Below, in pieces: positions 1 to 13,956 of a DNA stretch of 13,956 nt; the stretch's first letter is position 1, and the number at the start of each line of letters is the position of its first letter. Below the pieces are notes generated by a model. The model was not told the DNA's origin, did not search any database, and saw only the letters and a list, made by a program, of their open reading frames with translations. Origin of the DNA: a bacterium (GTDB lineage: Bacteria; Bacteroidota; Ignavibacteria; UBA10030). Position numbers and translations under genes: made by a program. Location: NCBI GenBank assembly GCA_043803945.1, contig JAZDJN010000097.1:1-13956 (forward strand), written 5' to 3'.

Positions 1-124
1 ACTCGTGATGCCAACGAGTGAGCTTAAGGCGTAGATGCCGTTTGTCTGATAGTTCACTCCCGGTCCGCTCTGGTAGGTTACAGTTGCTGGATATTCCTTT
101 CCTGCCTGTCCATCCCAGATCTTG
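1..124. repeat. Terminal direct repeat, copy 1 (124 bp)
   Basis: actcgtgatgccaac...catcccagatcttg is identical to 13833-13956. Confidence 0.98.
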
Positions 125-3100
125 AACTGGATGAGCTCGCCATCATCAAAACCATCCTTCAATGGTGTCTGATCATTATCGCCCCAGACTGCAACAGCGG
201 CATTTTGTCCTTCCTGCCAGATACTGTAACCGCCACAGACCAGAGTGTTATCGCGCTGGAAGAAAACACCGATGGCATCGCCGGTTTTTAGCGGCGTTGC
301 AGCAATCTTCGGATTGATTGCAAACGGAATTGCAATCGTGGCATTCTTTCCGGTGGAGAGTGCAAAGTTCCAGGAAGCAGGCGGTGGAACAATTGATCCA
401 CCATTAAAGAATGTTGTGACTTCATCAACGGCAGAGCGGAGCGCCGTAATGCTATTGATATTGGAGGTTCCCTGCGCGATGACAATCGCAATGACCACCT
501 CTGCAGAATCACCGGCGGTGAGATTAAATGGACCACAACTGATGAGTAATCTTCTGTCGTTTGGACCCGCGTCGATCCAGCCTGTGTTCGTCACTGGATC
601 TCCATTGACAGGATATGTTGTCACCTGTGATGTTGTCGGATCGACATGGCTGCTGCCGTCGATTCGTTTCCCCTGAAGTTCGTTATAGAACTGCTGGGCG
701 TTATTCGGATCAACCAATGGTGCCACACCTGCAGCATTGTAGCCAACTGCCTTCATAGGATTGCCGGTAACAGGACCTTTCAGATAGACGAAGCCCACAG
801 CAGGCGGAGCGGATCCGTAGGAGGTATCCGTTGGTGCACCATTATAGACATACGCAAGGTTTCTATTGATATCGCAGGCAACAAAATCATCGTAGGGATT
901 GCCAAGATCCGGATCGTTCCAGAAACCTGCATAGGCATTTGTCCATGCCTGCGCACCTTTGTTATAGATTCTATATTTGATGAAGAGTGTGTTCTTCAAC
1001 GCATCGGTGGAATTGAATCCGTATGATGTCTGACGGACCTCAGCACCGATCGGCATGGAGCCGTAACTGTGATTCCCGACATTCAAATCATTGTAGACGG
1101 TATAGAGCGTTTGATCTCCAATTATCTTTGGTGAGCCGTCGGTATTGACAGGTGCACCAAGGTCAGCCGGCCACTGGGCATAGTCCGGATTACTTGCATT
1201 GTCACCCTTTGAAATCTTATACATCCGGTACTTTGCATTATTTGGATCCACAGGTGTACTGCCAGTGGCAGTGCCTGCCTGGAAATCGGAGCGATAGTAT
1301 GCCACACCGGAAGCTGTTGTACCTCCGACTTGTCCGGCCAGCCATAATCCCGCCTGATACACTGCCCTCTTACCACTGCCTTTGGGCCACTCGAGAAGCG
1401 GGCCATTGGTGAACGCTTCTGTAACGAATCCCGCGCGCTTTAATGGTGTCCTGATGTTGTTGCCATCAAAATATTTCCGCGCGAGTACAGTGCCCGTACA
1501 GGGTATTGTATTCGGAGAGGATGGTGCATTAGAATGAAATTCAATCGGAGAAACCAATGCTCCCTCTGGTGTCAGCAATGCATAGACAATATGCTGTCGA
1601 TTCTGGCCTGCGGGGACTAAGAACATACCGGTTGGGCTGTGTCCAACCAGCGTGCCGGTACCACTGTTCGTCAGAGTTACACCGTGTGAGCGCTGTTCTC
1701 CCATTTCATATATTCCAAAATCCACGCTCGTTGGAGCGATCGACAACGTTGGGGGTCCACCCGGATCAAACGGGGAGAACAGTTCTGTCTTTGCGTTAGA
1801 CCGGTATTGTGCACTATCAGCAAGCACACCTCCATAATTTGGTGTATAGCTTAAGTTCGGTGGATTGTTTTCTTCAAACTTCCAGTAACTTATCAGCCCC
1901 TGTTCAAGTGAGGGGAATTCTATCCCATTTATAGCATTCTGAATTTCTGTTTGAGTGCGGGCCCTGCTCCATTGGCGCACCTCATCAATAAATCCATAGA
2001 ATGGCTTATCGACAGCGGGAAGAATATTGATCCCGATTCTGGATTCTCCCAGTGCGGGCAGCGACGCGGTGGCCGCAACCTTGTTCGCTTCAACGCCATT
2101 GACATAGACTTTGAGCGTATCACCGGAAAAGACACCGGCAACATGCGTCCAGCCGCGCAATGGAATTGTAGTCGCTCCACTATTTACTCCGACGACACTT
2201 CCGGGTGTTCCGCTCGAAACAAGAAATTCTAACTTGGGTAGTTCGCCTGCCGCGTAGCGGTGTAATTGAAGCGACATGGCCAGGTATGGATCCGTTCCGG
2301 CAGATGTGAAGCGCCGGTAAATAATCGCTTCATCGGCACCCATCAGCACCGGGCAGATCCATGCTTCCATTGTCCGTCGATTGCCTGGAGTTGCAAAGAC
2401 ATCAGTACTACGAACATTGCTATTCGGCCAGAGTTGAACGGAACGACTGCCGGTGCGCGAGACGGGTTTTGCACTTACTTCATTCCACGAAATACTCTCA
2501 CGTAAATCTGTTTCAACAATCGTTATCCGATAATAATACTGCACTCCATTTGTCAGACCAGTGAAATAGCGGGAGGTTTCATTCGGTGTGCTAATGGAAT
2601 CAATAAGCGTGGTCGGATTCGGCGATGTTCCTCCATAAATGCGAAACCGTAAGAATCTCTCAGGTTGTGATGAGCTATTCCACAATAAGTATATTCTACC
2701 GTCACCGGGGTGCGCCTGCACCTGTCGCACAACCGCCGGCAAACGTTCTGATCGCACAAACATCTGAACAACAGGTCCATCGAAATTAAAGCAGCCAACG
2801 TAGCACGTATCGCCGGTTGGACTGAATGCGATGCCGCGTGGACGTTGCTGCTCCGTTCCCGGAATCATATTCCAGCCGATGGTATCGACGATCTGTTTAG
2901 TCACCGGATTGAATGCATACCAGGTCTGTTTAGTATAGGGCGGAACCGGAGGATTGAATTCCGAACCGGAACTCACCCAGATATAACCAGTAACCGGATG
3001 CCGTGTCATCGACTCGATTGCGAGCCCACTGAATAGATTCTCCATGTTCGAATACGGACCGGCGGCACCGTTGTCGCTGTGATATCTGATCAGCGCTTTA

Positions 3101-6100
3101 GTGTTTTGATACTCCGGCCAGAAAACATCTTTCCCATCTCTTGTTACTCCGATGGATCTTGAATAGCCGGTGGAGAAACCAGCGACATTACCCAGAGTGT
3201 TGAACCCTGCATCGAATACCTGTATTGGATTATTAGGATTGACTTTCCCTACAAAAATATTTCCAAACGTGTCTGTTGCGGCTGCTGTCAAGACTTGATT
3301 AGGTTGCGGAATAACTTTGTTAAGCCCCTGACCTGTTTTGTAATCAATGCGATATAAAATGTGGTTGGCAGAATAGAGGATGTTTCCCTGATGATCCGTT
3401 GTGAGGCCGCGGCTGGTGTTATAGAGAGTATCAGTTATTCCGCCAACAGTAATCATCTTTATAGGTGAGAATGATGCTTGTGTGCCATTCGGGTAGAAGA
3501 CATACAGGACCCGAGTTTTGCGATACCCTGTTCCTGTAAGTAAACTATCAGAGGCATTAAACGGAGTGATCCAGACTTTCCCTTCCGGATCCACAGCAAG
3601 ACCGTGGATACCACCTGAACCGATTGTTGAATTGAAGAATGTCTTCACAAATTGCCATCCCAGTACGACCGGCGGCGGCAAGATAGCTTGTGTCGTGAAA
3701 CTATTGACGGGCGACCAGGCACTTGTTCCCGCACTGTTTGTCGCATTCACTCTCCAATAGTATGTTGTACCTCCTCCGAAAGTTACTGTAATTCCAGTAC
3801 CGATCAGGTTCGACTGATCATAAACAGTTGATGAAAAATCCTGAATAGTGGAGACCTGAATTCGATACGACTGTGCACCCGTTGATGCGTTCCAGATAAT
3901 CGATATTGGAATAAGAACGCCGCTTGCACCATTTGAAGGTAATGAAAGTGTTGGCGGTGCTGGGATTCCCGATGCCTTCGCATAACTCATCGTTTCGAAG
4001 CCCGTCGAGTCAACAGCTCCGACACGGTACACATAGATTGTCCCTGCAATTACTCCGGTGTTTGCATAACTTGTTTGCGTCGTAGAATCGATCAGCGTCA
4101 CATTGATGGAATCGATTCCTCTATAGATGCGATACCTGAGGAGACCAGTCCTGCCGCCAGCATCCTGCCAGGTAAGATTGACTGTCGTACCATTCGTAGA
4201 TGCAGTGAGATTTTGCGGAGGCAGATGCAAATTGAACTCCTGTGGTGTGCGGGCAATGTTCGAAAGACGCATTTCATCGATGATTCCCTTGAACCATTGG
4301 TCACCATGTGTACCGATCGTAATCCGTGAGTTTGTTGAGGCAATCGTACCCGGCCATGAACGCATTGCCACCAACAGACCATTAATATAGACCTTTTGAT
4401 CCACGCCATCGTACACTGCTGCAACATGAACCCACCGGTTGACCGGCATGGAAAAACTCAATGCATTATTTTCACTGCCATCACGCGAGATGAAAAATGC
4501 ATTTCTGTGCATATCCCAGGCAATTGGTCCATCATAGCGGGCAGCCCAGCCGCCGGCGCCTTCGTCATACACCCACGCTTCGATGGTGATTGCATTTCGT
4601 ATGTCGAGCGTCGGTGAGTTTGGTACTTCAACCAAATCTCCGGTTCCATTGTACCAGCGGGCAGCCCCAAACCGGCCATTGACGATTGTGGTTCCGGTGG
4701 CAACGCCATGATTGCTATTCCCACTTGCATCAGTTACCGTGGAACCGCCTGTCTCGTTCATATGCATGAGCAGCATCGTGTTGGCATCCGTTTTGTATTC
4801 ACCCAACAAGGTTGGGATCTCCCCCGCAGCGAGTGAATTCTCCGTTGTCCCCAATGCTCGCGCAAGAGCAACATATACCGTTCCGCCATTAGGTATAGTT
4901 GTTACCCTCACTGTATCGGATGAGATCAACCGTGGCAGACTATCGAGGGCCGTGGTATATGGTACAATGCTTGGCCCAATCCCTATCCAGGTCGATCTGG
5001 AATTTTCAGAGAGTGCGACACGCAGGTTTTGATTATTTGCTGCGACACCATCATTCAATCCATAACTTGGAGAGAACTGATCGAAGGACATTTGTGCTGC
5101 ACCGACGCCACCCTGCATGTATTGAACCTTGTAAAATCGAACTGCCGATACTTTATCGATACCATTTGAAAACGTACTACTCCCAGTATTAGCATTACCA
5201 AAGAGAGCGGTTACTAACACATGATGGCCGGTTGCCGTTCCCGGAGTTGTAGAGCGAACCTGGACTGGACGATAGCCATATTCATCTCCCACAGGGAATA
5301 ATCTTGTAATATAACTTCCGCCATTTGTCATTCCCCGCCCCATCGTGCCAAGCACATAGCTTGAATCAGAGCCGCCTAGAATCGAACCGCCTGTGAAGAG
5401 TAGCACGATCGCATTGCCGCCTGTTTCCACAATGCCATGTGTTAATTCAAGAAACGATGTTGCATTCAATGGTGAAGCGGAGTTTCCTGTTCCCATGTAG
5501 ATAGTACTCAGAAGCTTCAACCGTGCAGTGCCGGATTTGTTAATGATAATCCCGCTGAATTCGTTTGTACTTGTCCACCCTGAGCCTGCCACATAGGCCG
5601 TGGTAGTCGTATTGCCGGCAAATGTTATATTGCAGACACTCAGAGTACTATTGGAAGAGCCTGAGCGGAAGTCGATGAATCCAGAAGACTGCAAATTTCC
5701 CATCAACATTAGTGTATGTACAAGATTTCCACCTGGGGCTCCAACACTTCCGATCGTTCTGAAAGAAGCACCATTATTGATTGTAATGTCACCATTGACT
5801 ATGCAATTGACCAGTGTCGCCGCATTGAAGAACAGGCTGCCGGAGTTGCCCCCTCCTACCGTCAGCTTACCAATCGTAAAATTCTGATCAATGGTAACTG
5901 TATCATTATCCATGATGAGTACACAGTCCGTTGATACCGGTACAGTGCCGCCAATCCATGTCGTCGGCTGACTCCAGAGCCCTTTAAGACCAGAGGAGAT
6001 CACAAGTCCCGATTGCGCTGTCGCAGCAACCGCATAACTCATCGCTCCCTCAAAACCAAGAGTATCAACTGAACTGATCCGGTAAAAGTACTTGGTGCCC

Positions 6101-9100
6101 AGTGTTAGACCTGTTGAATTCAGATACGAAGTTGTGTTCGTGGAATCGATGAGTTGCAGCGTCGTTGAGTCGGTACCACGATAAATTTTATATCGCAGCA
6201 AACCAATTCCTCCTCCATCATCCTGCCAACTAAGGTAAATCTTCGTACCACTGGCAGAAGCAAGCAGATTTTTTGGAGGCAGATGCAGACTAAATTCCTG
6301 AGGTGAACGCACTCTATTCGAGAGACGCACTTCGTCGATCAGTCCATTATGGAAGTATGTGTTCATTCCCTGGCCGACCTTCGTATTCTCAGAACTGATT
6401 GAAGCAGGTGTAAGCCCCGAGACATTTTTATTAAAGACCTGCAAGCCGTTGAGATAACCAATAATTCTCCCGTTCGCATAATCATAGATTCCAGCACAGT
6501 GGACCCAAGTATTCAAGGGGACAACGACCTGAGAGGAGTCGTAGCGATTGGTTCCGTCAGACATCCGAACCCCCATTTGAAGCTTACCCCGCTGACTGAT
6601 AGAGACAAATGTCTGCATTGATGTCCCATTAAAGAGAATATCACCGGCAGGAGTTGGATAGTAATCCATCTTAATCCACGATTCAAATGTAAAGGTCGGT
6701 GCCGAAGCGGAGAGCAATGACTTTCCAAGATCGATGCCGTCGCTTGTGCCATTAAAAGATCTGGCTTTCCCAAATCTTCCATCCACGATTATCGTACCCG
6801 TCGCAGTACCATTGTTGCCGTTACCGCTTGCATCACCTACACTTGATCCGCTCGTTTCATTCATATGGAACAAGAGAGTGGTGTTCGCATCGGATCTGTA
6901 CTCACCTGCTAATAACGGCGGAGGAGGAGGCAGAATGCTGCTTCGAACAAACATCTGAACAGAAGCATTATCGCTATAGAAACAGGCAACATACGCTGTG
7001 TCACCGGTGGGTGAAAAAGCGATGCCGCGGGGGCGTGATTGTTCCGTTCCGAACACCGGATTCCAGCCGATGGTGTCAACAATCTGTTTTGTACTAGGAT
7101 TAAATCCATACCACGTTTGCTTTGTCCACGGTGGCACGGGAGGATTCGTTGCCGAACCCGAACTGACCCATAGCAATCCTGTGGTATTTTGCCACGTAAT
7201 AGACTCAATAGCCAAACCGGTGAGCATGCTGTCGGCAAGCGAATAGGGTCCGCCAATACTATTGTCGCTATGATACTTATAGAGTTTCTTGTTCGAATAC
7301 TCCGGCCAGTAAACATCGCGGCCATCCATTGAGACCTCGATTGCCCTTGAGTATCCTGTCGTTGTGCTGGTGACATTCCCCAGAGAATTGAATGCAGAAT
7401 TAAATATTTGGATCGGATACCCGGGGAGCACTTTGCCGACAAACAAATTGCCGGCGGCATCTGACGCTGAAGAAGTGATTGTCACATTTGGCTGCGGAAT
7501 GACTTTGTTCATTCCCTGACCGGTTTTATAATCGATCTTATAAACCGCATCAAATGAGGAGAAGAGAATATTCCCCTGATGATCCGTGGACAGGCCGCGG
7601 CTCGAGTTATACAGAGTGTCGGTCACGCTGTTGACGGTAATCATTTTAATTGGAGAAAATGTCGCCGGTGTACTATTTGGATAGAGTACATAGATTGCCC
7701 GTGTCTTCCGATACATTGTTCCTGTAAAGACACTGTCCGACGGATTATAGGGAATGATCCAGACTTTGCCATCGGGATCAACCGCAACACCATGGACACC
7801 CATTCCTCCCATGCCGCTAAAGAATTGACGTGCGAATGTCCACTGAGATGATATCGGAGGTGAAAGAATTTGCTGCGTGACAAAGCTGGAGACTGTTGAC
7901 CATGCGCTCGTACCGCCGGCACTGCTGGCATTGACTCTCCAATAATAAGTCGTGTTCCCGGCAAGGTCGTAGACTTCAAACTGTGTCCCTGTGTAACCGC
8001 TCTGATCAAAAATGAGTGAAGAAAAATCTGCCGCCGCTGAAACCTGGAATCGATAGAACGAAGCACCACTCGAAGGATTCCAAGCAATTTTTCCAGGCAG
8101 CAGGAAACCTCCAGTGCCATTTTCGGGGGCAACAAGTGTTGGCGCTGGCGGGATTACCATCGGTGTGGCACTTGCCATAGCCAGGTAATCAAACTCTTCA
8201 AGGGCTGCATTATCAGCCGTTACGCGGAAGAACTTAAGAGTTCCGTTTTCCAAACCCGTTATGAGTTTTGTCGTGTCATCGATAGCGCTCGTATAGTCGT
8301 CCTGACCCATCAAGTTGGGTAAAATTCCTTTATAAATTCGATAGCGCAGGAAGTTCGAGATCTTTGCGCGGTCCCAGCTCAGACGGACATTCCCGTCACC
8401 CGCAACAGCCAACAGGTTGAGTGGAGTATATTGAAGATTGAACTCCGCCGGCGTGCGGGCAATATTTGAAATACGCACTTCGTCGATAACAGTGCCGGAG
8501 AATCCCTGACCGATCCGGAGCGGAGAGCTGTTTGCACAGCTTCCCACACCATTAAAGGTTTGTTCACCCTCTTTTATTCCATCAATATAAAATGCATAGG
8601 TATAACCATTCTTCACGACAGCCACATGATGCCATCGTGTTTCATCGATTCTCGAGTTCGAACTAATATTCTTTACTCCTGTACTCCCATCGCTGAAGGT
8701 AAACACAAGCCGGCCGTCGGGCTGTAGCATATTCTGAAAGAGTTTGAAGCCGGGAATCGCAGGAGACTCATTTTCCCATTTATAGAATAAGAAGGGCTGA
8801 TTGGTAACCGTCGAGGACTTGATCCTCATCTCGATTGTGAAATTGGTGTTGCCAATATTTAACGACGTTGAAGCGGGAACGTTAATCATATTACCGGAGG
8901 TAAAGATTCTTGCTTTTCCAAAAGCACCCGTGCCGATGTACGTTCCGGTTGCCGTTCCGTTGTTACTCAAACCGCTTGCATCAACAGCAGTAGTTCCTGT
9001 CGATTCATTCAGATGGAGTAACAGCACCGTATTCGCATCGGTTGAATATTCCCCCAGCAATGTTGGGGGTGGAGTGCAGGGTTGATCGTTCCACCATTTC

Positions 9101-12100
9101 CAGTAGAGCGTGGTATCTTTTGGACTGGCACTCGCCGGGAGAATACGATTAGTTATTGATTCTGTGGCGGAGACATTCGCTAAAGGATCATTCGAATCGA
9201 TGATGACAAACTTGTACTCAATATTTGATGCAAATGCCGTAACCGGAAATCGAACTGAGCCTGACCAGAAGTTTGTACCATCGTACGGAGTTGCTCCATT
9301 TCCATGAGGTGACTCCTTCGTAAGAATAATTGTTTTTCCCCAATCTAAAGGAAGTGTACTACCCCGTATACCCACCAGTTGATTTGATTGGGTGAATCCC
9401 TGGGCTTGCATATTTACGCGGAAGAGGACATCAATCGAGTCGGGTTGATCGATATAGGGTTTCCAGTACTGCGGTTGAGGTGTGCGACCGTTAACATACT
9501 CGAGTGGAAGAGTCGTATCTGAATTGCCGACGACGAGAAATCTGTTGGGGCCCCAGAGTGGAGGAGTCTGCAGAATGCTGTTCTCCCATCCCTTGTTTTC
9601 CTCACCCACGGATAAAGAACTCTTCACATTGGTAAAGTACTTATATTGCAGTGAATCGCCCGGTTTCAGTTTTATCGTCGCTCTCCAGTAATCGCCGCCG
9701 ATGTTCGTCATAATGCCCTGCGATGTTACATCCCATGGTCCCAGGAACGGGGCAGTACCGCGAATTTGCACAAAAGAGTTCAACTTGATGGTATCTGGAA
9801 CAGTCGACGTGTTTGCAGTGAAGGTAACAAGAACCGAGTCACTGATGGTTACCTTTGTAGCGTAACTCAAGGCTCCTTCAAATGCAGTGACATCCACAGA
9901 ACTGACACGATAATAATACGTAGCGTGCAGAGTGAGACCTGTATTCGTGTAAGTCAATTGAGTTGTTGAATCAATTAACGTCATGGAGAGCGAATCCGCT
10001 CCTCGATAAATCTTATACCGCAAGAGACCAACAGAACCACCGCCATTCTCCCAACTCAAATTACTTGTTGTCCCCGTGAATGTTCCAGAAAGATTCTTCG
10101 GTGGTAATTGGAGATTGAACTCTTGTGGCGAGCGAGCGACTTTGGAAATGCGAACTTCATCGAGAATGCCAGCAGCTGTTCCTAAGACCAAGCTTCCATC
10201 ATTATCCGGGCTTCCTTGAGTCAGAATAGGAACAATGGTATCCAATGCCCCATCGATGTAGAGCAACATCGACGTTTGCGTCAGGACGGCTGCAAGGTGA
10301 TGCCAGCGTCCATCATTAATGAGCCGACTGCTGAACAGCCCGGTGTTTCCTTGATCGCCTAGGAGAGTACCATTATTATAAACCGACACGCAAACGCGCC
10401 CATCTGCTTGTGCAGTCATAAACCATCCACGGCCGTTGCTTCCTCTTTTATGAATGATTGATCCGCCCACATTAGGCAAGCCGAGAGTATTAAACCAGGT
10501 TTCCAGTGTGTATGCGCCTGTACCTACATTGAGAGAGGGTGAATGCGGAATGCTGAATCCCTCTCCGGATACACTAAAACGACGTCCTTTACCCCATCGT
10601 CCATCTTCGATTGTCGAACCCGTGACTCCGTTATTGCCAAAGCCACTCACATCGGCAACGTTCGAGCCGCTCGTCTCATTCATATGCAGAAGGAGTACAG
10701 TATTCCCATCCGGGACATACTCACCTAACAATGGAGTGCTGTACGGTGTGGCAGAGACTTCATAGGAGTACTGACTCTCACCCAACGCGGTTACCGCTGT
10801 CACGCGCAGATAATATCTGGTAGCGTTGAGGAGACTTGAAATAATCTTTGTTGTATCTGTAATTCCGCCACTGACAGTTTCTATCAATGTTGTCGGGTGT
10901 GGAGAGGTACCGCCATAAATTTTATAGCTCTGAAAATTAGGATCATCGCTTTTTCTCCAGGTGATCGTCACCTGGTTATTGCCGGCGAATGCGATAGGAT
11001 TGCGCGGTGCACCTGGTTTATTAGTTAAGAACGCAGCGTTTCGATCACCAACAGCGAATCCCTGAGTCTCAGAGAGGAATGAGAGATACCGGAAATCTCC
11101 ATTGCTGTAGGTTGAGAACACATAGGCCCACGTGACACCGTTGTCCGTTGATTTCCAAATCTTTGCATCTGTAGAACCGCGCCCGGCAGCATAAACGATG
11201 TTTGTTCCCCGAATAGGTTTCACCGCAAACGTTCTTGCTTCAGCATGATTGATACCCGGCTGCACACTGATTGTATCGCTCCAGGTCTGTCCCCCATCGG
11301 TAGTTTTGATGAGGTAATTGTCAGTGTTTGGTGCAGAACCGGCTCGAACACAGATTCCATACCCAAAAAGGGAATCACGGAAACTGATTGCATGGAAGCG
11401 ATAGTTAAAAGCAGAACCGGTCGGCAGTGTGACTGAAGTGAATTGCCATGTCTCTCCCTTATCACTGGTTCTGAGAATAGCAGGATTGACTCCCGGTCCT
11501 TGATAGAGTGTGAGCCATGCATGGTTTCCATATACATCAAGGGGCTGGCCATACGAGAGGAAGCTGACCCAGTAATTTGGGGTCTTTGCCTCGTTGGGAA
11601 GATTGGTCAAACGCTGCCAGGTGAGTCCCGCATCCGTGCTCCGGGCGACGAAGAGGCCAGAGCCGTCCGAATCTCCAAGAGCGAGGACGGTGTCATTCCC
11701 CATGAACTTAATACCGTCAATAAATCCCGTTCCCGGTGTCGGATATGTACAGACAAGCGTCCAATGCGCTCCACCATCGGTGGTTCGATAAATATCACCA
11801 AAGGCCGTCCCGACAAGAGCGATGTTAGCATCGCGGGCAGCAATGTTGGTGATGCCGCAGCTCGTTCTCCCATAGAGGTCCATGAGGGAAAATTTTGTCC
11901 ATGTCACTCCATGATCTGTCGATCGAAATCCGTAATGAGTTGGTGCATACGGACTTGGACATCCAACAAGCCAGACAGTCCCATCTGGTAGATAATCCAC
12001 ACTCCTGAAAAAACTTGTGGCGGTCTCAATATCAACAGTAGTCCAATTGAGATTATCCACGGTCCCAAAAATACTTGAGGCGGTTTTGACATCAACCGTT

Positions 12101-12198
12101 GTTAAATTTTGTTGTGCAACCAGCATATTGGAGAAGGGTAAGAGACAAGTAACAGCAGCAACAAGGAATGCAACGCGATGAAAGCATGATCGTGCCAT
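1..12198 (-). CDS. Giant multidomain secreted/surface protein, T9SS cargo (open at the left edge; continues in frame into 13832..12639 if the ends are joined, 4463 aa total)
   Basis: Hand translation from ATG 12198 (MARSCFHRVAFLVAAVTCLLPFSNMLVAQQ...) to position 1 (...GVNYQTNGIYALSSLVGITS) shows no stop in 4066 codons. SD AAGGAG lies 9 nt upstream. Recognisable BNR, FN3, LamG and CBM20-like motifs occur throughout. Confidence 0.96.
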   Translation of the reverse strand, partial: MARSCFHRVAFLVAAVTCLLPFSNMLVAQQNLTTVDVKTASSIFGTVDNLNWTTVDIETATSFFRSVDYLPDGTVWLVGCPSPYAPTHYGFRSTDHGVTWTKFSLMDLYGRTSCGITNIAARDANIALVGTAFGDIYRTTDGGAHWTLVCTYPTPGTGFIDGIKFMGNDTVLALGDSDGSGLFVARSTDAGLTWQRLTNLPNEAKTPNYWVSFLSYGQPLDVYGNHAWLTLYQGPGVNPAILRTSDKGETWQFTSVTLPTGSAFNYRFHAISFRDSLFGYGICVRAGSAPNTDNYLIKTTDGGQTWSDTISVQPGINHAEARTFAVKPIRGTNIVYAAGRGSTDAKIWKSTDNGVTWAYVFSTYSNGDFRYLSFLSETQGFAVGDRNAAFLTNKPGAPRNPIAFAGNNQVTITWRKSDDPNFQSYKIYGGTSPHPTTLIETVSGGITDTTKIISSLLNATRYYLRVTAVTALGESQYSYEVSATPYSTPLLGEYVPDGNTVLLLHMNETSGSNVADVSGFGNNGVTGSTIEDGRWGKGRRFSVSGEGFSIPHSPSLNVGTGAYTLETWFNTLGLPNVGGSIIHKRGSNGRGWFMTAQADGRVCVSVYNNGTLLGDQGNTGLFSSRLINDGRWHHLAAVLTQTSMLLYIDGALDTIVPILTQGSPDNDGSLVLGTAAGILDEVRISKVARSPQEFNLQLPPKNLSGTFTGTTSNLSWENGGGSVGLLRYKIYRGADSLSMTLIDSTTQLTYTNTGLTLHATYYYRVSSVDVTAFEGALSYATKVTISDSVLVTFTANTSTVPDTIKLNSFVQIRGTAPFLGPWDVTSQGIMTNIGGDYWRATIKLKPGDSLQYKYFTNVKSSLSVGEENKGWENSILQTPPLWGPNRFLVVGNSDTTLPLEYVNGRTPQPQYWKPYIDQPDSIDVLFRVNMQAQGFTQSNQLVGIRGSTLPLDWGKTIILTKESPHGNGATPYDGTNFWSGSVRFPVTAFASNIEYKFVIIDSNDPLANVSATESITNRILPASASPKDTTLYWKWWNDQPCTPPPTLLGEYSTDANTVLLLHLNESTGTTAVDASGLSNNGTATGTYIGTGAFGKARIFTSGNMINVPASTSLNIGNTNFTIEMRIKSSTVTNQPFLFYKWENESPAIPGFKLFQNMLQPDGRLVFTFSDGSTGVKNISSNSRIDETRWHHVAVVKNGYTYAFYIDGIKEGEQTFNGVGSCANSSPLRIGQGFSGTVIDEVRISNIARTPAEFNLQYTPLNLLAVAGDGNVRLSWDRAKISNFLRYRIYKGILPNLMGQDDYTSAIDDTTKLITGLENGTLKFFRVTADNAALEEFDYLAMASATPMVIPPAPTLVAPENGTGGFLLPGKIAWNPSSGASFYRFQVSAAADFSSLIFDQSGYTGTQFEVYDLAGNTTYYWRVNASSAGGTSAWSTVSSFVTQQILSPPISSQWTFARQFFSGMGGMGVHGVAVDPDGKVWIIPYNPSDSVFTGTMYRKTRAIYVLYPNSTPATFSPIKMITVNSVTDTLYNSSRGLSTDHQGNILFSSFDAVYKIDYKTGQGMNKVIPQPNVTITSSASDAAGNLFVGKVLPGYPIQIFNSAFNSLGNVTSTTTGYSRAIEVSMDGRDVYWPEYSNKKLYKYHSDNSIGGPYSLADSMLTGLAIESITWQNTTGLLWVSSGSATNPPVPPWTKQTWYGFNPSTKQIVDTIGWNPVFGTEQSRPRGIAFSPTGDTAYVACFYSDNASVQMFVRSSILPPPPPLLAGEYRSDANTTLLFHMNETSGSSVGDASGNGNNGTATGTIIVDGRFGKARSFNGTSDGIDLGKSLLSASAPTFTFESWIKMDYYPTPAGDILFNGTSMQTFVSISQRGKLQMGVRMSDGTNRYDSSQVVVPLNTWVHCAGIYDYANGRIIGYLNGLQVFNKNVSGLTPASISSENTKVGQGMNTYFHNGLIDEVRLSNRVRSPQEFSLHLPPKNLLASASGTKIYLSWQDDGGGIGLLRYKIYRGTDSTTLQLIDSTNTTSYLNSTGLTLGTKYFYRISSVDTLGFEGAMSYAVAATAQSGLVISSGLKGLWSQPTTWIGGTVPVSTDCVLIMDNDTVTIDQNFTIGKLTVGGGNSGSLFFNAATLVNCIVNGDITINNGASFRTIGSVGAPGGNLVHTLMLMGNLQSSGFIDFRSGSSNSTLSVCNITFAGNTTTTAYVAGSGWTSTNEFSGIIINKSGTARLKLLSTIYMGTGNSASPLNATSFLELTHGIVETGGNAIVLLFTGGSILGGSDSSYVLGTMGRGMTNGGSYITRLFPVGDEYGYRPVQVRSTTPGTATGHHVLVTALFGNANTGSSTFSNGIDKVSAVRFYKVQYMQGGVGAAQMSFDQFSPSYGLNDGVAANNQNLRVALSENSRSTWIGIGPSIVPYTTALDSLPRLISSDTVRVTTIPNGGTVYVALARALGTTENSLAAGEIPTLLGEYKTDANTMLLMHMNETGGSTVTDASGNSNHGVATGTTIVNGRFGAARWYNGTGDLVEVPNSPTLDIRNAITIEAWVYDEGAGGWAARYDGPIAWDMHRNAFFISRDGSENNALSFSMPVNRWVHVAAVYDGVDQKVYINGLLVAMRSWPGTIASTNSRITIGTHGDQWFKGIIDEMRLSNIARTPQEFNLHLPPQNLTASTNGTTVNLTWQDAGGRTGLLRYRIYRGIDSINVTLIDSTTQTSYANTGVIAGTIYVYRVGAVDSTGFETMSYAKASGIPAPPTLSLPSNGASGVLIPISIIWNASTGAQSYRIQVSTIQDFSSTVYDQSNLIGTGITVTFGGGTTYYWRVNATNSAGTSAWSPVNSFTTQAILPPPVVLGWQFVKTFFNSTIGSGGIHGLAVDPEGKVWITPFNASDSLLTGTGYRKTRVLYVFYPNGTQASFSPIKMITVGGITDTLYNTSRGLTTDHQGNILYSANHILYRIDYKTGQGLNKVIPQPNQVLTAAATDTFGNIFVGKVNPNNPIQVFDAGFNTLGNVAGFSTGYSRSIGVTRDGKDVFWPEYQNTKALIRYHSDNGAAGPYSNMENLFSGLAIESMTRHPVTGYIWVSSGSEFNPPVPPYTKQTWYAFNPVTKQIVDTIGWNMIPGTEQQRPRGIAFSPTGDTCYVGCFNFDGPVVQMFVRSERLPAVVRQVQAHPGDGRIYLLWNSSSQPERFLRFRIYGGTSPNPTTLIDSISTPNETSRYFTGLTNGVQYYYRITIVETDLRESISWNEVSAKPVSRTGSRSVQLWPNSNVRSTDVFATPGNRRTMEAWICPVLMGADEAIIYRRFTSAGTDPYLAMSLQLHRYAAGELPKLEFLVSSGTPGSVVGVNSGATTIPLRGWTHVAGVFSGDTLKVYVNGVEANKVAATASLPALGESRIGINILPAVDKPFYGFIDEVRQWSRARTQTEIQNAINGIEFPSLEQGLISYWKFEENNPPNLSYTPNYGGVLADSAQYRSNAKTELFSPFDPGGPPTLSIAPTSVDFGIYEMGEQRSHGVTLTNSGTGTLVGHSPTGMFLVPAGQNRQHIVYALLTPEGALVSPIEFHSNAPSSPNTIPCTGTVLARKYFDGNNIRTPLKRAGFVTEAFTNGPLLEWPKGSGKRAVYQAGLWLAGQVGGTTASGVAYYRSDFQAGTATGSTPVDPNNAKYRMYKISKGDNASNPDYAQWPADLGAPVNTDGSPKIIGDQTLYTVYNDLNVGNHSYGSMPIGAEVRQTSYGFNSTDALKNTLFIKYRIYNKGAQAWTNAYAGFWNDPDLGNPYDDFVACDINRNLAYVYNGAPTDTSYGSAPPAVGFVYLKGPVTGNPMKAVGYNAAGVAPLVDPNNAQQFYNELQGKRIDGSSHVDPTTSQVTTYPVNGDPVTNTGWIDAGPNDRRLLISCGPFNLTAGDSAEVVIAIVIAQGTSNINSITALRSAVDEVTTFFNGGSIVPPPASWNFALSTGKNATIAIPFAINPKIAATPLKTGDAIGVFFQRDNTLVCGGYSIWQEGQNAAVAVWGDNDQTPLKDGFDDGELIQFKIWDGQAGKEYPATVTYQSGPGVNYQTNGIYALSSLVGITS
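400..1473 (-). other. ~350-aa domain of unknown function, of a type I recall from FCB-group T9SS cargo proteins
   Basis: Motifs DGNNI, EWPKGSGK...GLWLAG, WPADLGAP, GDQT, PIGAEV, FWNDPDLG..DDFVACD, PPAVG, GDPVTNTGWID..PNDRR, GPFNL. Recognised from memory; no family name can be assigned. Confidence 0.55.
1485..1755 (-). other. ASH/choice-of-anchor-D-like Ig domain
   Basis: PTLSIAPTSVDFG...VTLTNSGTGTL...HSNAPSSPNTIPCTG. Confidence 0.65.
1790..2740 (-). other. FN3 followed by a fifth LamG-like domain of a different subtype
   Basis: FN3: IYLLW...IYGGTSPNPTTLIDS...GLTNGVQYYYRI. LamG: TMEAWI...WTHVAGVF...VYVNG...FYGFIDEVRQWSRARTQTEIQ...GLISYWKFEE. Confidence 0.85.
2749..3660 (-). repeat. ~300-aa beta-propeller, copy B
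   Basis: Shares long identical peptides with copy A: FSPIKMITV, TDHQGNIL, IDYKTGQG, NKVIPQPN, TKQIVDTIGWN, RPRGIAFSPTGDT, VQMFVRS. Confidence 0.8.
3685..3963 (-). other. FN3-like domain (PxLxxPxNG...YYWRV type), copy 2
   Basis: PAPPTLSLPSNG...IIWNASTGAQSYRIQVS...TTYYWRVNATNSAGTSAWS...FTT. Confidence 0.8.
3965..4809 (-). repeat. LamG + FN3 module, copy 4
   Basis: LLGEYKTDANTMLLMHMNE...ITIEAWV...WVHVAAVYDG...VYING...FKGIIDEMRLSNIARTPQEFNLHLPPQNL...LLRYRIYRG. Confidence 0.9.
4820..6000 (-). other. G8-like start followed by a probable beta-helix/beta-rich module
   Basis: GLWSQPTTWIGGTVPVSTDCVLI...VTID, then short Gly/Asn-rich strands (LTVGGG, VNGDITINNG, IIINKSG, LELTHGIVETG), then SSYVLG...LFPVGDEYGYRPV. 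Confidence 0.6.
6010..6915 (-). repeat. LamG + FN3 module, copy 3
   Basis: LLAGEYRSDANTTLLFHMNE...WVHCAGIYD...YLNG...LIDEVRLSNRVRSPQEFSLHLPPKNL...LLRYKIYRG...YFYRISSVD. Confidence 0.9.
6940..7845 (-). repeat. ~300-aa beta-propeller (NHL/YVTN-like blades), copy A
   Basis: HGVAVDPDGKVWI, RGLSTDHQGNI, SRAIEVSMDGRDVY, PRGIAFSPTGDTAYV. Aligns end to end with 2749-3660. Confidence 0.8.
7870..8155 (-). other. FN3-like domain (PxLxxPxNG...YYWRV type), copy 1
   Basis: PPAPTLVAPENG...IAWNPSSGASFYRFQVS...TTYYWRVNA...GTSAWS...FVT. Confidence 0.8.
8161..9060 (-). repeat. LamG + FN3 module, copy 2
   Basis: LLGEYSTDANTVLLLHLNE...WHHVAVV...FYIDG...IDEVRISNIARTPAEFNL, then FN3 (VRLSW...YRIY...GLENG...FRVTA). 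Confidence 0.9.
9075..9840 (-). other. Two tandem CBM20-like (starch-binding fold) domains
   Basis: VTFTAN...VQIRG..PFLGPW...DYWRATI...QYKY...GWE...NR, then VLFRVNM...VGIRGSTLPLDW...FWSGSV...EYKFVI...NR. Confidence 0.7.
9841..10731 (-). repeat. LamG (concanavalin A-like) + FN3 module, copy 1
   Basis: LLGEYVPDGNTVLLLHMNE...WHHLAAV...LYIDG...ILDEVRISKVARSPQEFNLQLPPKNL...YKIYRG...YYYRVSSVD. Confidence 0.9.
10741..11016 (-). other. Fibronectin type III domain
   Basis: PGAPRNP...VTITW...YKIY...LLNATRYYLRVTAV...GES. Confidence 0.85.
11030..12050 (-). other. Asp-box/BNR (YCF48-like) beta-propeller domain
   Basis: Six S/T-x-D-x-G-x-T/H-W motifs: STDHGVTW, TTDGGAHW, STDAGLTW, TSDKGETW, TTDGGQTW, STDNGVTW. 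Confidence 0.9.
11991..12110 (-). repeat. Degenerate in-frame 60-bp tandem duplication
   Basis: 11991-12050 vs 12051-12110 match at 43/60 nt by hand count. Peptides are QNLTTVDVKTASSIFGTVDN and LNWTTVDIETATSFFRSVDY. Confidence 0.85.
12115..12198 (-). other. Sec/SPI signal peptide (28 aa), predicted cleavage LVA|Q
   Basis: Basic N-region (R, H, R), hydrophobic core VAFLVAAVTCLL, Ala at -1 and Gln at +1, as is typical of Bacteroidota-type SPI substrates. Confidence 0.8.
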
Positions 12199-12207
12199 GA
12201 CACAATT

Positions 12208-12213
12208 CTCCTT
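12208..12213 (-). promoter_or_regulatory. Shine-Dalgarno sequence
   Basis: Minus strand reads ttAAGGAGaattgtgtcATG, a 9-nt spacer. Confidence 0.85.
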
Positions 12214-12481
12214 AATACAAAGATTTAAAAACTTCCAACACCTCCAACATCATCCCAATGGGATCTCTCTTGCACGAAAACAAGAACTATGTTGAATAGT
12301 AGTGTGGCGCTATAATCTCAGAATATTGGTTTGGAAAGAAACAGAAGAAGGCGATGGTGGGCGGTGAATAGTGTGCACTGTGCGGCACTCGAGAGTCTGA
12401 AAAGTTTGTGTTTGATTCATGACGCCCACCCCCAAAAAATGGGAAACGGAATGACCACGCCGCAGTGTGTTTACATTGAGC

Positions 12482-12510
12482 AAAGTAGAGAAATCGCTTC
12501 AGAGTGTCAA
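12482..12510 (-). promoter_or_regulatory. Putative sigma70-type promoter
   Basis: Minus strand TTGACA (12510-12505), 17-nt spacer, TACTTT (12487-12482), pointing toward the giant gene. Confidence 0.65.
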
Positions 12511-12577
12511 CGATCTGAGTCACGTGAGGAAATATTGACAAATATCGGCGGGAAACGAGCAACCGTCAGGAACAATT

Positions 12578-12615
12578 GTTCATCCCCGGCTGAATGGTCT
12601 CAACCGGGGATGAAC
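12578..12615 (-). terminator. Strong stem-loop after the stop codon (terminator or 3'-stabilising hairpin)
   Basis: Minus strand GTTCATCCCCGGTTGA-gaccat-TCAGCCGGGGATGAAC is a 16-bp stem with one G-U pair that forms only on the sense strand. It starts 23 nt after TAG. The U-tract (AATTGTT) is weak. Confidence 0.65.
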
Positions 12616-12638
12616 CAATAAAGGCAGGGCAATCGACA

Positions 12639-12908
12639 CTATTTCAGGAGGATACACCTCTTTGTTGATGCGAACTCTCCTGCAAGAATCGTATAGAAGT
12701 ACACACCACTCACAAGATTTCTGTTCTGGAATTGTACTGAATAGTATCCCGCTTTCTGCTCGGTGTTGACTAGGGTTACTACTTTTCTGCCGAGAACATC
12801 ATACACTTCCAGAAGCACCTTCATATCCTTCGGCAAAGCATACCGTATCGTTGTCGATGGGTTGAATGGATTCGGATAATTCTGTTCAAGCGCAAACTCC
12901 GTCGGTAT
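12639..12908 (-). other. T9SS type A C-terminal sorting domain (Por secretion tail)
   Basis: IPTEFALEQNYPNPFNPSTTIRYALP...VYDVLGRKV...SGVYFY...KRCILLK is the canonical YPNP...GxY...K pattern. Confidence 0.95.
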
Positions 12909-13956
12909 CGCTTCTACAACTTCATCAATAGTCGCTATCCATACTCCATCGGTTCTATAGCTTACGCTCTTACTCTCATACTCTCCTGTCAATCCGTTAA
13001 GCAGAGTATTGATTTTCAAGACTCGTTCTTTACCCGACCAGGATGTCATCATCAAACTCTCCCCCTCTCCCACTCCTTCTTTCACCCCTTCCGTCATCTC
13101 ATCGTCACCCCAAATTGTGACTAACGCTTTACCATTTGCTACAACTCCGCTTCCCACCAGCTTCTTCTCCTGCGTCCACACACCAATCTCTTCTCCTTCC
13201 TTTACTCCGCTTCCCTCTATTATAAGGATTGCACTGGAGCCAGTATTGTTGTATTCCACTCGATACTTCGTCGGCTCTGGTATCGTTGAAGTGTTCTCTG
13301 TTAATGCTGTCTTCGTCAAGAGAGAGGGTGGCGCCACGGCAGCATTTGCCGGATAGGTGAGTGTCGCCGCACCGGAGAGATACATCTGGTAGCCCTGGCC
13401 AGGTTTCATACTGCCTATCGTGTTTATAGTGAACGCCGGCCAGTACACCTGACCCATATTGTTCTTCGCAATCACTATATTGCTGCCGAGTGTTACCAGA
13501 GCAGAGTCGGCACGCATAGCACTATTCCGTAAGTACGATACTAAATTCCAGCCCTGCGGCATTGCAATCGGGAATTGCTGCGGATTAATCTCTTCACCAA
13601 TCACCGTTAAGGTATCTTTCAATGACATATAGACCTGATACCCATGATACCTCTTCCACTTCCCGATGGTGTTGATTGTAAATGCAGGCCAGTAGACCTG
13701 TCCCAGATTATTCTTCGCAATCACCATCTTCGATTTCACTTTTGCATAGAGTGTATCGAGTGTCGAGTCTTTCGGCGTGACGAAGCTCGAGATCATATTC
13801 CAGCCCTGCGGCAGGACAATACTATGCGCTACACTCGTGATGCCAACGAGTGAGCTTAAGGCGTAGATGCCGTTTGTCTGATAGTTCACTCCCGGTCCGC
13901 TCTGGTAGGTTACAGTTGCTGGATATTCCTTTCCTGCCTGTCCATCCCAGATCTTG
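12639..13956 (-). CDS. C-terminal part of a T9SS type A sorting-domain protein (5'-partial; either the same gene across the junction or an upstream tandem paralogue)
   Basis: The frame stays open past the GTG at 13889 to the window end (KIWDGQAGKEYPATVTYQSGPGVNYQTNG...), matching the translation of positions 1-124. It ends ...LEQNYPNPFNPSTTIRY...SGVYFYTILAGEFASTKRCILLK-TAG. Confidence 0.95.
   Translation of the reverse strand, partial: KIWDGQAGKEYPATVTYQSGPGVNYQTNGIYALSSLVGITSVAHSIVLPQGWNMISSFVTPKDSTLDTLYAKVKSKMVIAKNNLGQVYWPAFTINTIGKWKRYHGYQVYMSLKDTLTVIGEEINPQQFPIAMPQGWNLVSYLRNSAMRADSALVTLGSNIVIAKNNMGQVYWPAFTINTIGSMKPGQGYQMYLSGAATLTYPANAAVAPPSLLTKTALTENTSTIPEPTKYRVEYNNTGSSAILIIEGSGVKEGEEIGVWTQEKKLVGSGVVANGKALVTIWGDDEMTEGVKEGVGEGESLMMTSWSGKERVLKINTLLNGLTGEYESKSVSYRTDGVWIATIDEVVEAIPTEFALEQNYPNPFNPSTTIRYALPKDMKVLLEVYDVLGRKVVTLVNTEQKAGYYSVQFQNRNLVSGVYFYTILAGEFASTKRCILLK
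13350..13826 (-). repeat. Two tandem GWN-type repeats (84-aa period)
   Basis: PQGWNMISS...VIAKNNLGQVYWPAFTINTIG...GYQVY and PQGWNLVSY...VIAKNNMGQVYWPAFTINTIG...GYQMY. The Trp codons are 252 nt apart. Confidence 0.9.
13833..13956. repeat. Terminal direct repeat, copy 2 (124 bp)
   Basis: Exact match to 1-124. It lies inside coding sequence and is read in the same codon phase. Confidence 0.98.

Follow-up and report, generated by a model that had tools for sequence, protein, structure and literature searches.

We analyzed a stretch of 13,956 nucleotides (nt), called the window below, from a bacterium of the lineage Bacteroidota; Ignavibacteria; UBA10030 (GTDB). The window is one whole contig, JAZDJN010000097.1 of the GenBank assembly GCA_043803945.1, and its long open reading frame (ORF) is found in the protein database as P0121, assigned to a contig of 13,956 nt. 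The original prediction, made from the sequence alone, was that the window closes into a 13.8-kb unit holding one giant gene. Our analysis indicates that this one-gene circle is very probably an assembly artefact and that the window corresponds, most likely, to a loop edge in a de Bruijn graph between the repeats of giant genes arranged in tandem.

The ends of the window are indeed identical, as had been claimed. Bases 1–124 match bases 13833–13956 with 0 mismatches, there is no longer overlap, and the unit comprises 13,832 nt. The overlap is not due to chance, since the window has no other exact repeat of at least 18 nt. The in-frame join was confirmed as well. The minus-strand ORF at 1–12198, called gene A below, encodes 4066 amino acids (aa) from its ATG. 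It has 41 residues in common with the 5'-open ORF at 12639–13955 (438 aa), called tail B. The joined frame from the ATG at 12198 encodes 4463 aa (4066 + 438 − 41), which is 96.8% of the unit, close to the predicted 97%. The closure itself was not confirmed: a second contig has the same end, and the overlap is shorter than the putative k-mer length of the assembly.

The joint is located within a C-terminal cassette of about 530 aa. It consists of a module that we designate domain X, two 84-aa repeats, a second domain X, and a sorting domain of the type IX secretion system (T9SS), and no Pfam family is recognized in it outside the sorting domain. Domain X runs straight into the repeats in 100 of 356 other proteins (101 of 359 if the window's own tail fragment is counted). 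The passengers of the cassette include chitinase, serine protease, cohesin, TolB-like, and BNR proteins, and the source organisms belong, by name, to Ignavibacteria, Bacteroidota, and KSB1. Because the break lies inside this conserved cassette, an in-frame join with a correct architecture is expected for any two paralogues cut there and is no evidence of a circle.

With the 567 C-terminal residues of A as the query against giant proteins, we obtained four matches from 1785 candidates. The protein that bears on the ends of the window is P0124, which has 3428 aa and is encoded on a contig of 21,730 nt. It has another passenger (with FG-GAP and ASPIC/UnbV among others) and lacks a sorting domain. 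P0124 is 90% identical to A over domain X, and both proteins terminate at exactly one and the same residue. Their last 47 residues, which correspond to 141 nt, are identical; the residue before them is Asp in A and Glu in P0124, therefore the DNA must differ at base 142 of the window. P0124 is known as a protein, so that the common 141-nt end is a reconstruction at the DNA level. Among 253 proteins with a domain X match of at least 100 aa, P0124 is the sole one that exceeds 70% identity in this domain, the window's own protein being set aside. Because of the common end point and the lack of any other such protein, P0124 presumably comes from the same assembly. The original prediction had suggested searching for another contig with the cassette as a test of paralogy, and this contig gives a positive answer: it carries a different passenger with the same segment and the same last residue.

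In a de Bruijn assembly, two contigs that enter one repeat end on the same k-mer and then differ at the next base. As far as can be judged from the sequences, the common end of 47 residues is what an assembly with k = 141 leaves behind when two contigs meet one repeat. We checked end lengths of 124–150 nt, and only 126, 129, 132, 135, 138, and 141 are compatible with both proteins. Only the length of 141 is forced by the residue change, while 127 and 139 are excluded by the residues of A and P0124. In the settings given in the COBRA paper (PMC10914622), repeat-induced breaks leave ends of maxK (127 for metaSPAdes, 141 for MEGAHIT) or maxK−1 (139 for IDBA_UD). Of these three lengths, only the 141 of MEGAHIT fits the end of A and P0124, and in this common end the window resembles the breaks described there.

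For a contig that leaves and enters the same repeat, the overlap of its ends is obtained by subtracting the repeat length from 2k. A k of 141 thus corresponds to a repeat of 2 × 141 − 124 = 158 nt; the remaining compatible end lengths give repeats of 128–152 nt and leave the conclusion unchanged. We simulated a tandem layout X-R-L-R-Y in random DNA, with R = 158 and k = 141, and obtained a contig of 13,956 nt with an overlap of 124 nt. A simulated lone circle gave 13,973 nt and an overlap of 141 nt, that is, k, and an overlap of 124 nt was not obtained for it at k = 99, 127, or 141. Thus the overlap of 124 nt is shorter than the putative k of 141 and equals 2 × 141 − 158, where both k and the repeat length are derived values. 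The original prediction had warned that terminal overlaps of this size are a normal product of k-mer assembly. The warning was right in a narrower form, the overlap being 2k minus the repeat length and not k. We derived this relation by simulation and did not meet it in the consulted part of PMC10914622; the supplementary simulations of COBRA may already describe the loop case. In addition, the two tails are predicted to split at base 13815, the third base of a Val codon.

Two other combinations were tried and rejected. A k of 127 with a repeat of 130 nt gives the same lengths; however, base 128 falls in the middle of a Gln codon common to A and P0124. A repeat of exactly 124 nt is rejected likewise, as long as there is no third copy. 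Among representatives clustered at 50%, 2906 relatives of domain X are found at E ≤ 0.001. No near-identical third copy was seen among the best 150 of them, and the clustering can hide one.

The geometry bears directly on whether the window could be an autonomous one-gene episome, with P0124 as an unrelated coincidence from another assembly. The overlapping ends and the in-frame join agree with such an episome, and the source assembly of P0124 is itself deduced. Moreover, according to PMC10914622, COBRA takes shorter overlaps as self-circular if neither end has a partner. This does not apply to the window, for which an end partner exists. A lone circle would show an overlap equal to k and not 124 nt at any of the three k values above, and a coincidence would have to explain why P0124 shares the end residue and stands alone in its similarity of domain X. 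Nor was a replication gene found. The original prediction had reported no rep, integrase, transposase, or capsid gene, and our searches agree with it. None of the 15 shadow ORFs examined (of 31 other ORFs of at least 80 aa) matches Pfam or PHROGs at E ≤ 0.001, so that neither an integrase nor phage genes were found among them, and a tRNA scan of the window revealed no tRNA and no tRNA att site. There is no plasmid match for 12199–13956, no DnaA-box or dif-like motif, and no repeat family, such as iterons, in 12199–12638 among the 20 families listed of 33. The main ORF contains extracellular domains only. We regard the lone episome, the first option of the original prediction, as hardly credible.

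The explanation that we favor, a loop between tandem repeats, can be described as follows. A chromosome of the Fibrobacteres-Chlorobi-Bacteroidetes (FCB) group would carry at least two giant secreted multidomain genes head to tail, each with a T9SS cassette of about 530 aa. The cassette copies would share an exact stretch of 128–158 nt in domain X (158 nt if k = 141), and the assembler would have broken the sequence at both copies. The contig would then run through the end of the repeat, the tail of the upstream gene, the hairpin, the spacer, gene A, and the start of the repeat. If there are two copies, a linear reading would be possible in one way only: the P0124 passenger, the repeat, tail B, the spacer, passenger A, the repeat, and a second tail. 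With more than two copies, the upstream gene may be another paralogue, and A would still be directly downstream of one. The identical stretch itself could have arisen by patchy gene conversion or recombination. Joining the ends would fuse passenger A to the tail of its neighbor; the 4463-aa protein is thus probably a chimera, and the true A is probably of a similar length. Unlike the breaks described in the consulted part of PMC10914622, here both ends would lie on one short repeat in a coding cassette, and so the loop mimics a perfect one-gene circle.

Several points weigh against this explanation. The predicted second tail, which should start at the same residue as B, was not found among the 120 matches listed of 158 (8000 candidates of 240–767 aa). 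Apart from the window's own protein, the best whole-query identity among the matches listed did not exceed 59%. Possibly the contig that carries the second tail is short or was itself broken again. Taken alone, the agreement with 141 is modest and post hoc (p = 0.057 that, with 41 residues identical, the first mismatch occurs at residue 48). Both the origin of P0124 in the same assembly and its adjacency to A are inferred. Our GTDB scan used two peptide patterns and yielded 688 stretches, of which the best 80 gave 74 loci; the generic sorting-domain pattern was dominant, and the scan neither finds nor excludes the host or its close relatives. Parts of the cassette were seen in only 3 of the 74 loci, at 27–32% identity, and two cassette copies in none. 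Tandem sorting-domain genes, which speak for the proposed layout, are nevertheless common: at least two same-strand sorting-domain matches were present in the fetched flanks of 33 of the 74 loci. Exact stretches of at least 40 nt between tandem tails occurred in 5 of these 33 loci, and the longest, 82 nt, is shorter than needed here. Finally, an excised circle with a shortened chromosome, or an amplification, gave the same contigs in simulation and differed only in depth or read phasing.

This last point concerns two explanations. Gene A with tail B could have been excised by homologous recombination, so that many of the cells would contain a non-replicating circle of 13,832 nt together with a chromosome in which the P0124 passenger is fused to the other tail. 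A perfect direct repeat of 128–158 nt is long enough for RecA-dependent exchange, and the contigs would be exactly those of the tandem layout. However, no rep gene, integrase, or origin-like feature was found by the searches of the 15 shadow ORFs, the motif search, and the plasmid comparison. A circle without replication would be lost by dilution and would not reach the depth of the chromosome in an assembly, and excision needs one extra event beyond the tandem layout. We therefore consider it very unlikely. The alternative of a head-to-tail amplification, in which every extra copy of the 13,832-nt unit encodes the chimeric 4463-aa protein, also reproduces the contigs (with a depth of 3x for three simulated copies), and the unit does have a spacer, a ribosome-binding site, and a complete reading frame. 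Yet nothing in the sequence requires amplification, and the window has no internal exact repeat of at least 18 nt and no sign of a mobile element, which makes this alternative highly improbable to us.

The third option of the original prediction was an array of giant paralogues sharing a segment of the cassette, with passengers swapped onto a common T9SS tail as a surface-variation system. The layout was supported by P0124; the variation system was not, since the genes appear to have their own signal peptides and no recombinase was found. What could speak for a programmed variation locus is the long identical tract in a domain otherwise 15% divergent at the protein level, together with the mosaic relationship of A and P0124. 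Their identity is patchy, which agrees with the tandem layout of paralogues as well: 68% in the CBM20-like domains, 72% in LamG3, 83% in fn3, 80% in the second NHL-like propeller, 90% in domain X, and 35–40% in the other LamG domains. In P0124 the propeller abuts domain X, while A has about 780 extra residues there. As judged from these comparisons, modules have probably been shuffled and recombined in the course of evolution. Also, blocks of the cassette are 76–100% identical among proteins with different passengers (e.g., P0009, P0011, P0022, and P0026), and P0009 and P0022 are 76–98% identical in cassette blocks and 8–20% just upstream. On the other hand, A and P0124 each have a signal-peptide-like N-terminus followed by Gln, and A has a ribosome-binding site; neither resembles a silent donor. 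A recombinase was not found in the window, and a swap between equivalent tails would be neutral for display. The effect of a crossover there would be the loss or duplication of 13.8 kb and not the switching on of a passenger. We identified by eye, with no control for chance, seven pairs of cassette proteins with a common source and longest contig. Three same-contig pairs are not homogenized: P0052/P0214 are 40% identical, P0081/P0113 41%, and P0005/P0216 49%. Homogenization is thus patchy, given the 76–98% of P0009/P0022. The probability of a programmed variation locus seems very small to us.

A broader suggestion is that the cassette is an actively homogenized recombination module of the FCB group, where crossovers would delete, duplicate, or re-tail giant genes so frequently that excised 13.8-kb circles or amplified arrays coexist with the tandem form in the sampled population and tune the dose and set of surface proteins without a recombinase. 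This is speculative and, in our opinion, unlikely. If frequent excision or amplification were true, the locus would be a testable case of recombinase-free variation in surface-protein dosage. Most likely, the underlying locus is of an ordinary kind: tandem T9SS cargo genes, unusually large, with a recently homogenized tract in a family-less cassette.

Borrelia vls, Neisseria pilE/pilS, and Campylobacter fetus sap combine a conserved anchor or sorting part with variable exposed parts and recombine in shared sequence, with silent donors or switches. The paralogues described here are similar in having a conserved anchor part and a variable exposed part. In contrast to those systems, no silent promoterless donor, invertible promoter, or recombinase was seen, and each gene looks complete. 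T9SS type A cargo of the FCB group (PF18962, TIGR04183) is similar in its multidomain passenger, C-terminal sorting domain, and tandem clusters (33 of 74 loci), and by eye the N-terminus of A looks like the signal peptide of such cargo. The proteins studied here differ from the usual cargo in being very large (about 4460 aa if the tail of A is like B) and in having an all-beta cassette of about 440 aa without Pfam matches before the sorting domain. The nearest published parallel that we met is provided by the gingipain and adhesin genes of Porphyromonas gingivalis, diversified by domain rearrangement and allelic exchange according to PMC5266723; there, too, modules of T9SS cargo become mosaic via recombination. 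That work compares strains of a host-associated pathogen, whereas we describe two paralogues at one putative locus, with no recognized catalytic domain and with the tract in the C-terminal cassette.

The main value of the window is as a caution. Identical ends that join seamlessly and in frame may also come from a loop edge between tandem paralogues, which betrays itself by an overlap that falls short of the k used in assembly. Similar contigs will turn up in screens for new circular elements. The cassette deserves attention in its own right as a widespread family-less all-beta element before the T9SS sorting domain, with high identity across unrelated passengers; candidate roles are a spacer, an anchor, or an aid in folding or secretion.

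The coordinates of the features are listed in Table 1.

Table 1. Features of the window (13,956 nt); positions refer to the forward strand
Feature	Position	Strand	Evidence and remarks
Terminal 124-nt copy 1	1..124	.	Last 41 codons (+1 base) of domain X in gene A; identity to 13833-13956
Terminal 124-nt copy 2	13833..13956	.	Beginning of tail ORF B; identity to 1-124
Putative end k-mer, 47 codons, common with P0124	1..141	-	First 141 nt of the putative 158-nt repeat
Putative last 141 nt of the 158-nt repeat	13816..13956	-	From 2k-124, k=141
Gene A, 4066 aa, 3'-open	1..12198	-	ORF, Pfam and sequence comparison
Probable Sec signal peptide, aa 1-28	12115..12198	-	By eye; Gln after the likely cleavage site
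BNR/Asp-box (YCF48, sortilin-like) propeller, aa ~40-395	11014..12081	-	PF14870 E 7e-16, PF15902, PF02012
Two CBM20-like domains, aa ~789-1043	9070..9834	-	PF00686 E 1.7e-13, 2 stretches; 68% identical to P0124
NHL-like propeller 1, aa ~1450-1757	6928..7851	-	PF01436 E 6e-05; ~65% identical to propeller 2
NHL-like propeller 2, aa ~2845-3154	2737..3666	-	80% identical to the P0124 propeller directly before domain X
350-aa domain of unknown function	409..1461	-	No Pfam/PHROG match; not in P0124
Domain X, 133 aa, first cassette module	1..399	-	90% identical to P0124; no Pfam match
Tail ORF B, 438 aa, 5'-open	12639..13955	-	Most likely the tail of the upstream paralogue
T9SS type A C-terminal sorting domain, aa 360-435 of B	12651..12878	-	PF18962, TIGR04183
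Intergenic spacer, 440 nt	12199..12638	-	From the stop of the upstream gene to gene A
17-pair hairpin	12578..12615	-	24 nt past the tail ORF stop; 2 sites found, shuffle mean 0.5
Sigma-70-like site, unproven	12482..12510	-	TTGACA-17-TACTTT; perfect -35, weak -10
Shine-Dalgarno-like AAGGAG	12208..12213	-	Ahead of the gene A ATG

Gene A encodes a probable signal peptide, a BNR/YCF48-like propeller, 5 LamG domains, about 8 fn3-like domains, 2 CBM20-like domains, 2 NHL-like propellers, a weak G8-like region, an Ig-like domain, the 350-aa unknown domain, and domain X. The Gln after the cleavage site of the signal peptide was interpreted by a rule from PMC5837995. A search of PDB sequences with the last 1400 aa of A gave one fn3 match only, and no catalytic domain was recognized in the protein. 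Given the content of LamG, CBM20, propeller, and fn3 domains, these proteins are most likely secreted or surface glycan-binding adhesins or scaffolds, with predicted export by T9SS.

The 350-aa domain is found in P0122, P0034, and P0123 at 52–58% identity, and its Atlas neighbors are hypothetical clusters only (Bacteroidota, Fidelibacterota, Ignavibacteriota). Besides A, 11 proteins of the comparison set have it, often near the N-terminus. An internal duplication is also visible in gene A: 2752–3970 and 6943–8158 (fn3 and NHL-like propeller, with a spacing of about 4190 nt) have 71–74% DNA identity. Its second copy, the one with propeller 2, is nearer to P0124 (80% at the protein level) than to the first copy (about 65%).

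Tail B comprises, in order, the end of domain X, two repeats of about 84 aa, a linker, a second domain-X-like module, and the T9SS type A sorting domain. The sorting domain is at the extreme C-terminus of the 438 aa and scores above the curated cut-offs (36.9 bits against 27 for PF18962; 39 bits against 23 for TIGR04183). This holds for tail B; the tail of A presumably carries a sorting domain as well. The AlphaFold model of tail B has high confidence (pLDDT 88.9, pTM 0.76) and is nearly all beta, and Foldseek gave only weak Ig-like matches (TM by query ≤ 0.18), among them the RgpB C-terminal domain 5ag8 with E 6.3e-05. An Atlas search with domain X returned hypothetical clusters only. Some giant proteins contain as many as about 15 copies of domain X. 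The GC content of third codon positions is 0.58–0.61 in the repeats of tail B and 0.41–0.53 in most of A, which is not discriminating. The region 13001–13500 has a strong skew with a purine-rich coding strand (0.66, aa 201–300 of B), unlike the rest of the window.

The original prediction provided the unit with a promoter and a hairpin of its own. The hairpin is real; however, it lies 24 nt behind the stop of the tail ORF, for which reason it is more likely part of the upstream gene than of a self-contained unit. It is likely a terminator or stabilizer of that gene, has no clean U tract, and explains the folding z-score of the whole spacer (−2.27). Rfam has no match in 12100–12750. The promoter is a consensus match only. 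Its second hexamer agrees in 3 of 6 positions, and the site falls below the threshold of the promoter scan; the one site that the scan did report is no more than shuffled sequences yield (mean 0.8).

Two other proteins, P0218 and P0222, have longest contigs of the same length, 14,502 nt. One ends in the cassette repeats, at the residue corresponding to 165 of B, and the other begins at residue 183 of B. They are either a split gene or a second contig with a loop geometry like that of the window.

A fully assembled example of the tandem cargo layout is L026, a locus on an Ignavibacteria contig of 789,630 nt with six tandem cargo genes of 355–857 aa, whose sorting-domain DNA is 77–90% identical and includes an exact 82-mer. 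The six-gene array lies at 7853–18156, and a more degenerate seventh copy is seen near 18756–19017. In the records titled Heimdallarchaeota, Actinomycetota, and Acidobacteria (L020, L038, and L004), T9SS-type sorting-domain matches were also found; either these contigs were mis-binned, or the domain may be more widely distributed. In L053, adjacent paralogues at 8220–12954 are 95% identical over 1.1 kb, and their sorting-domain parts apparently lie outside the long ORFs, as if both genes were interrupted.

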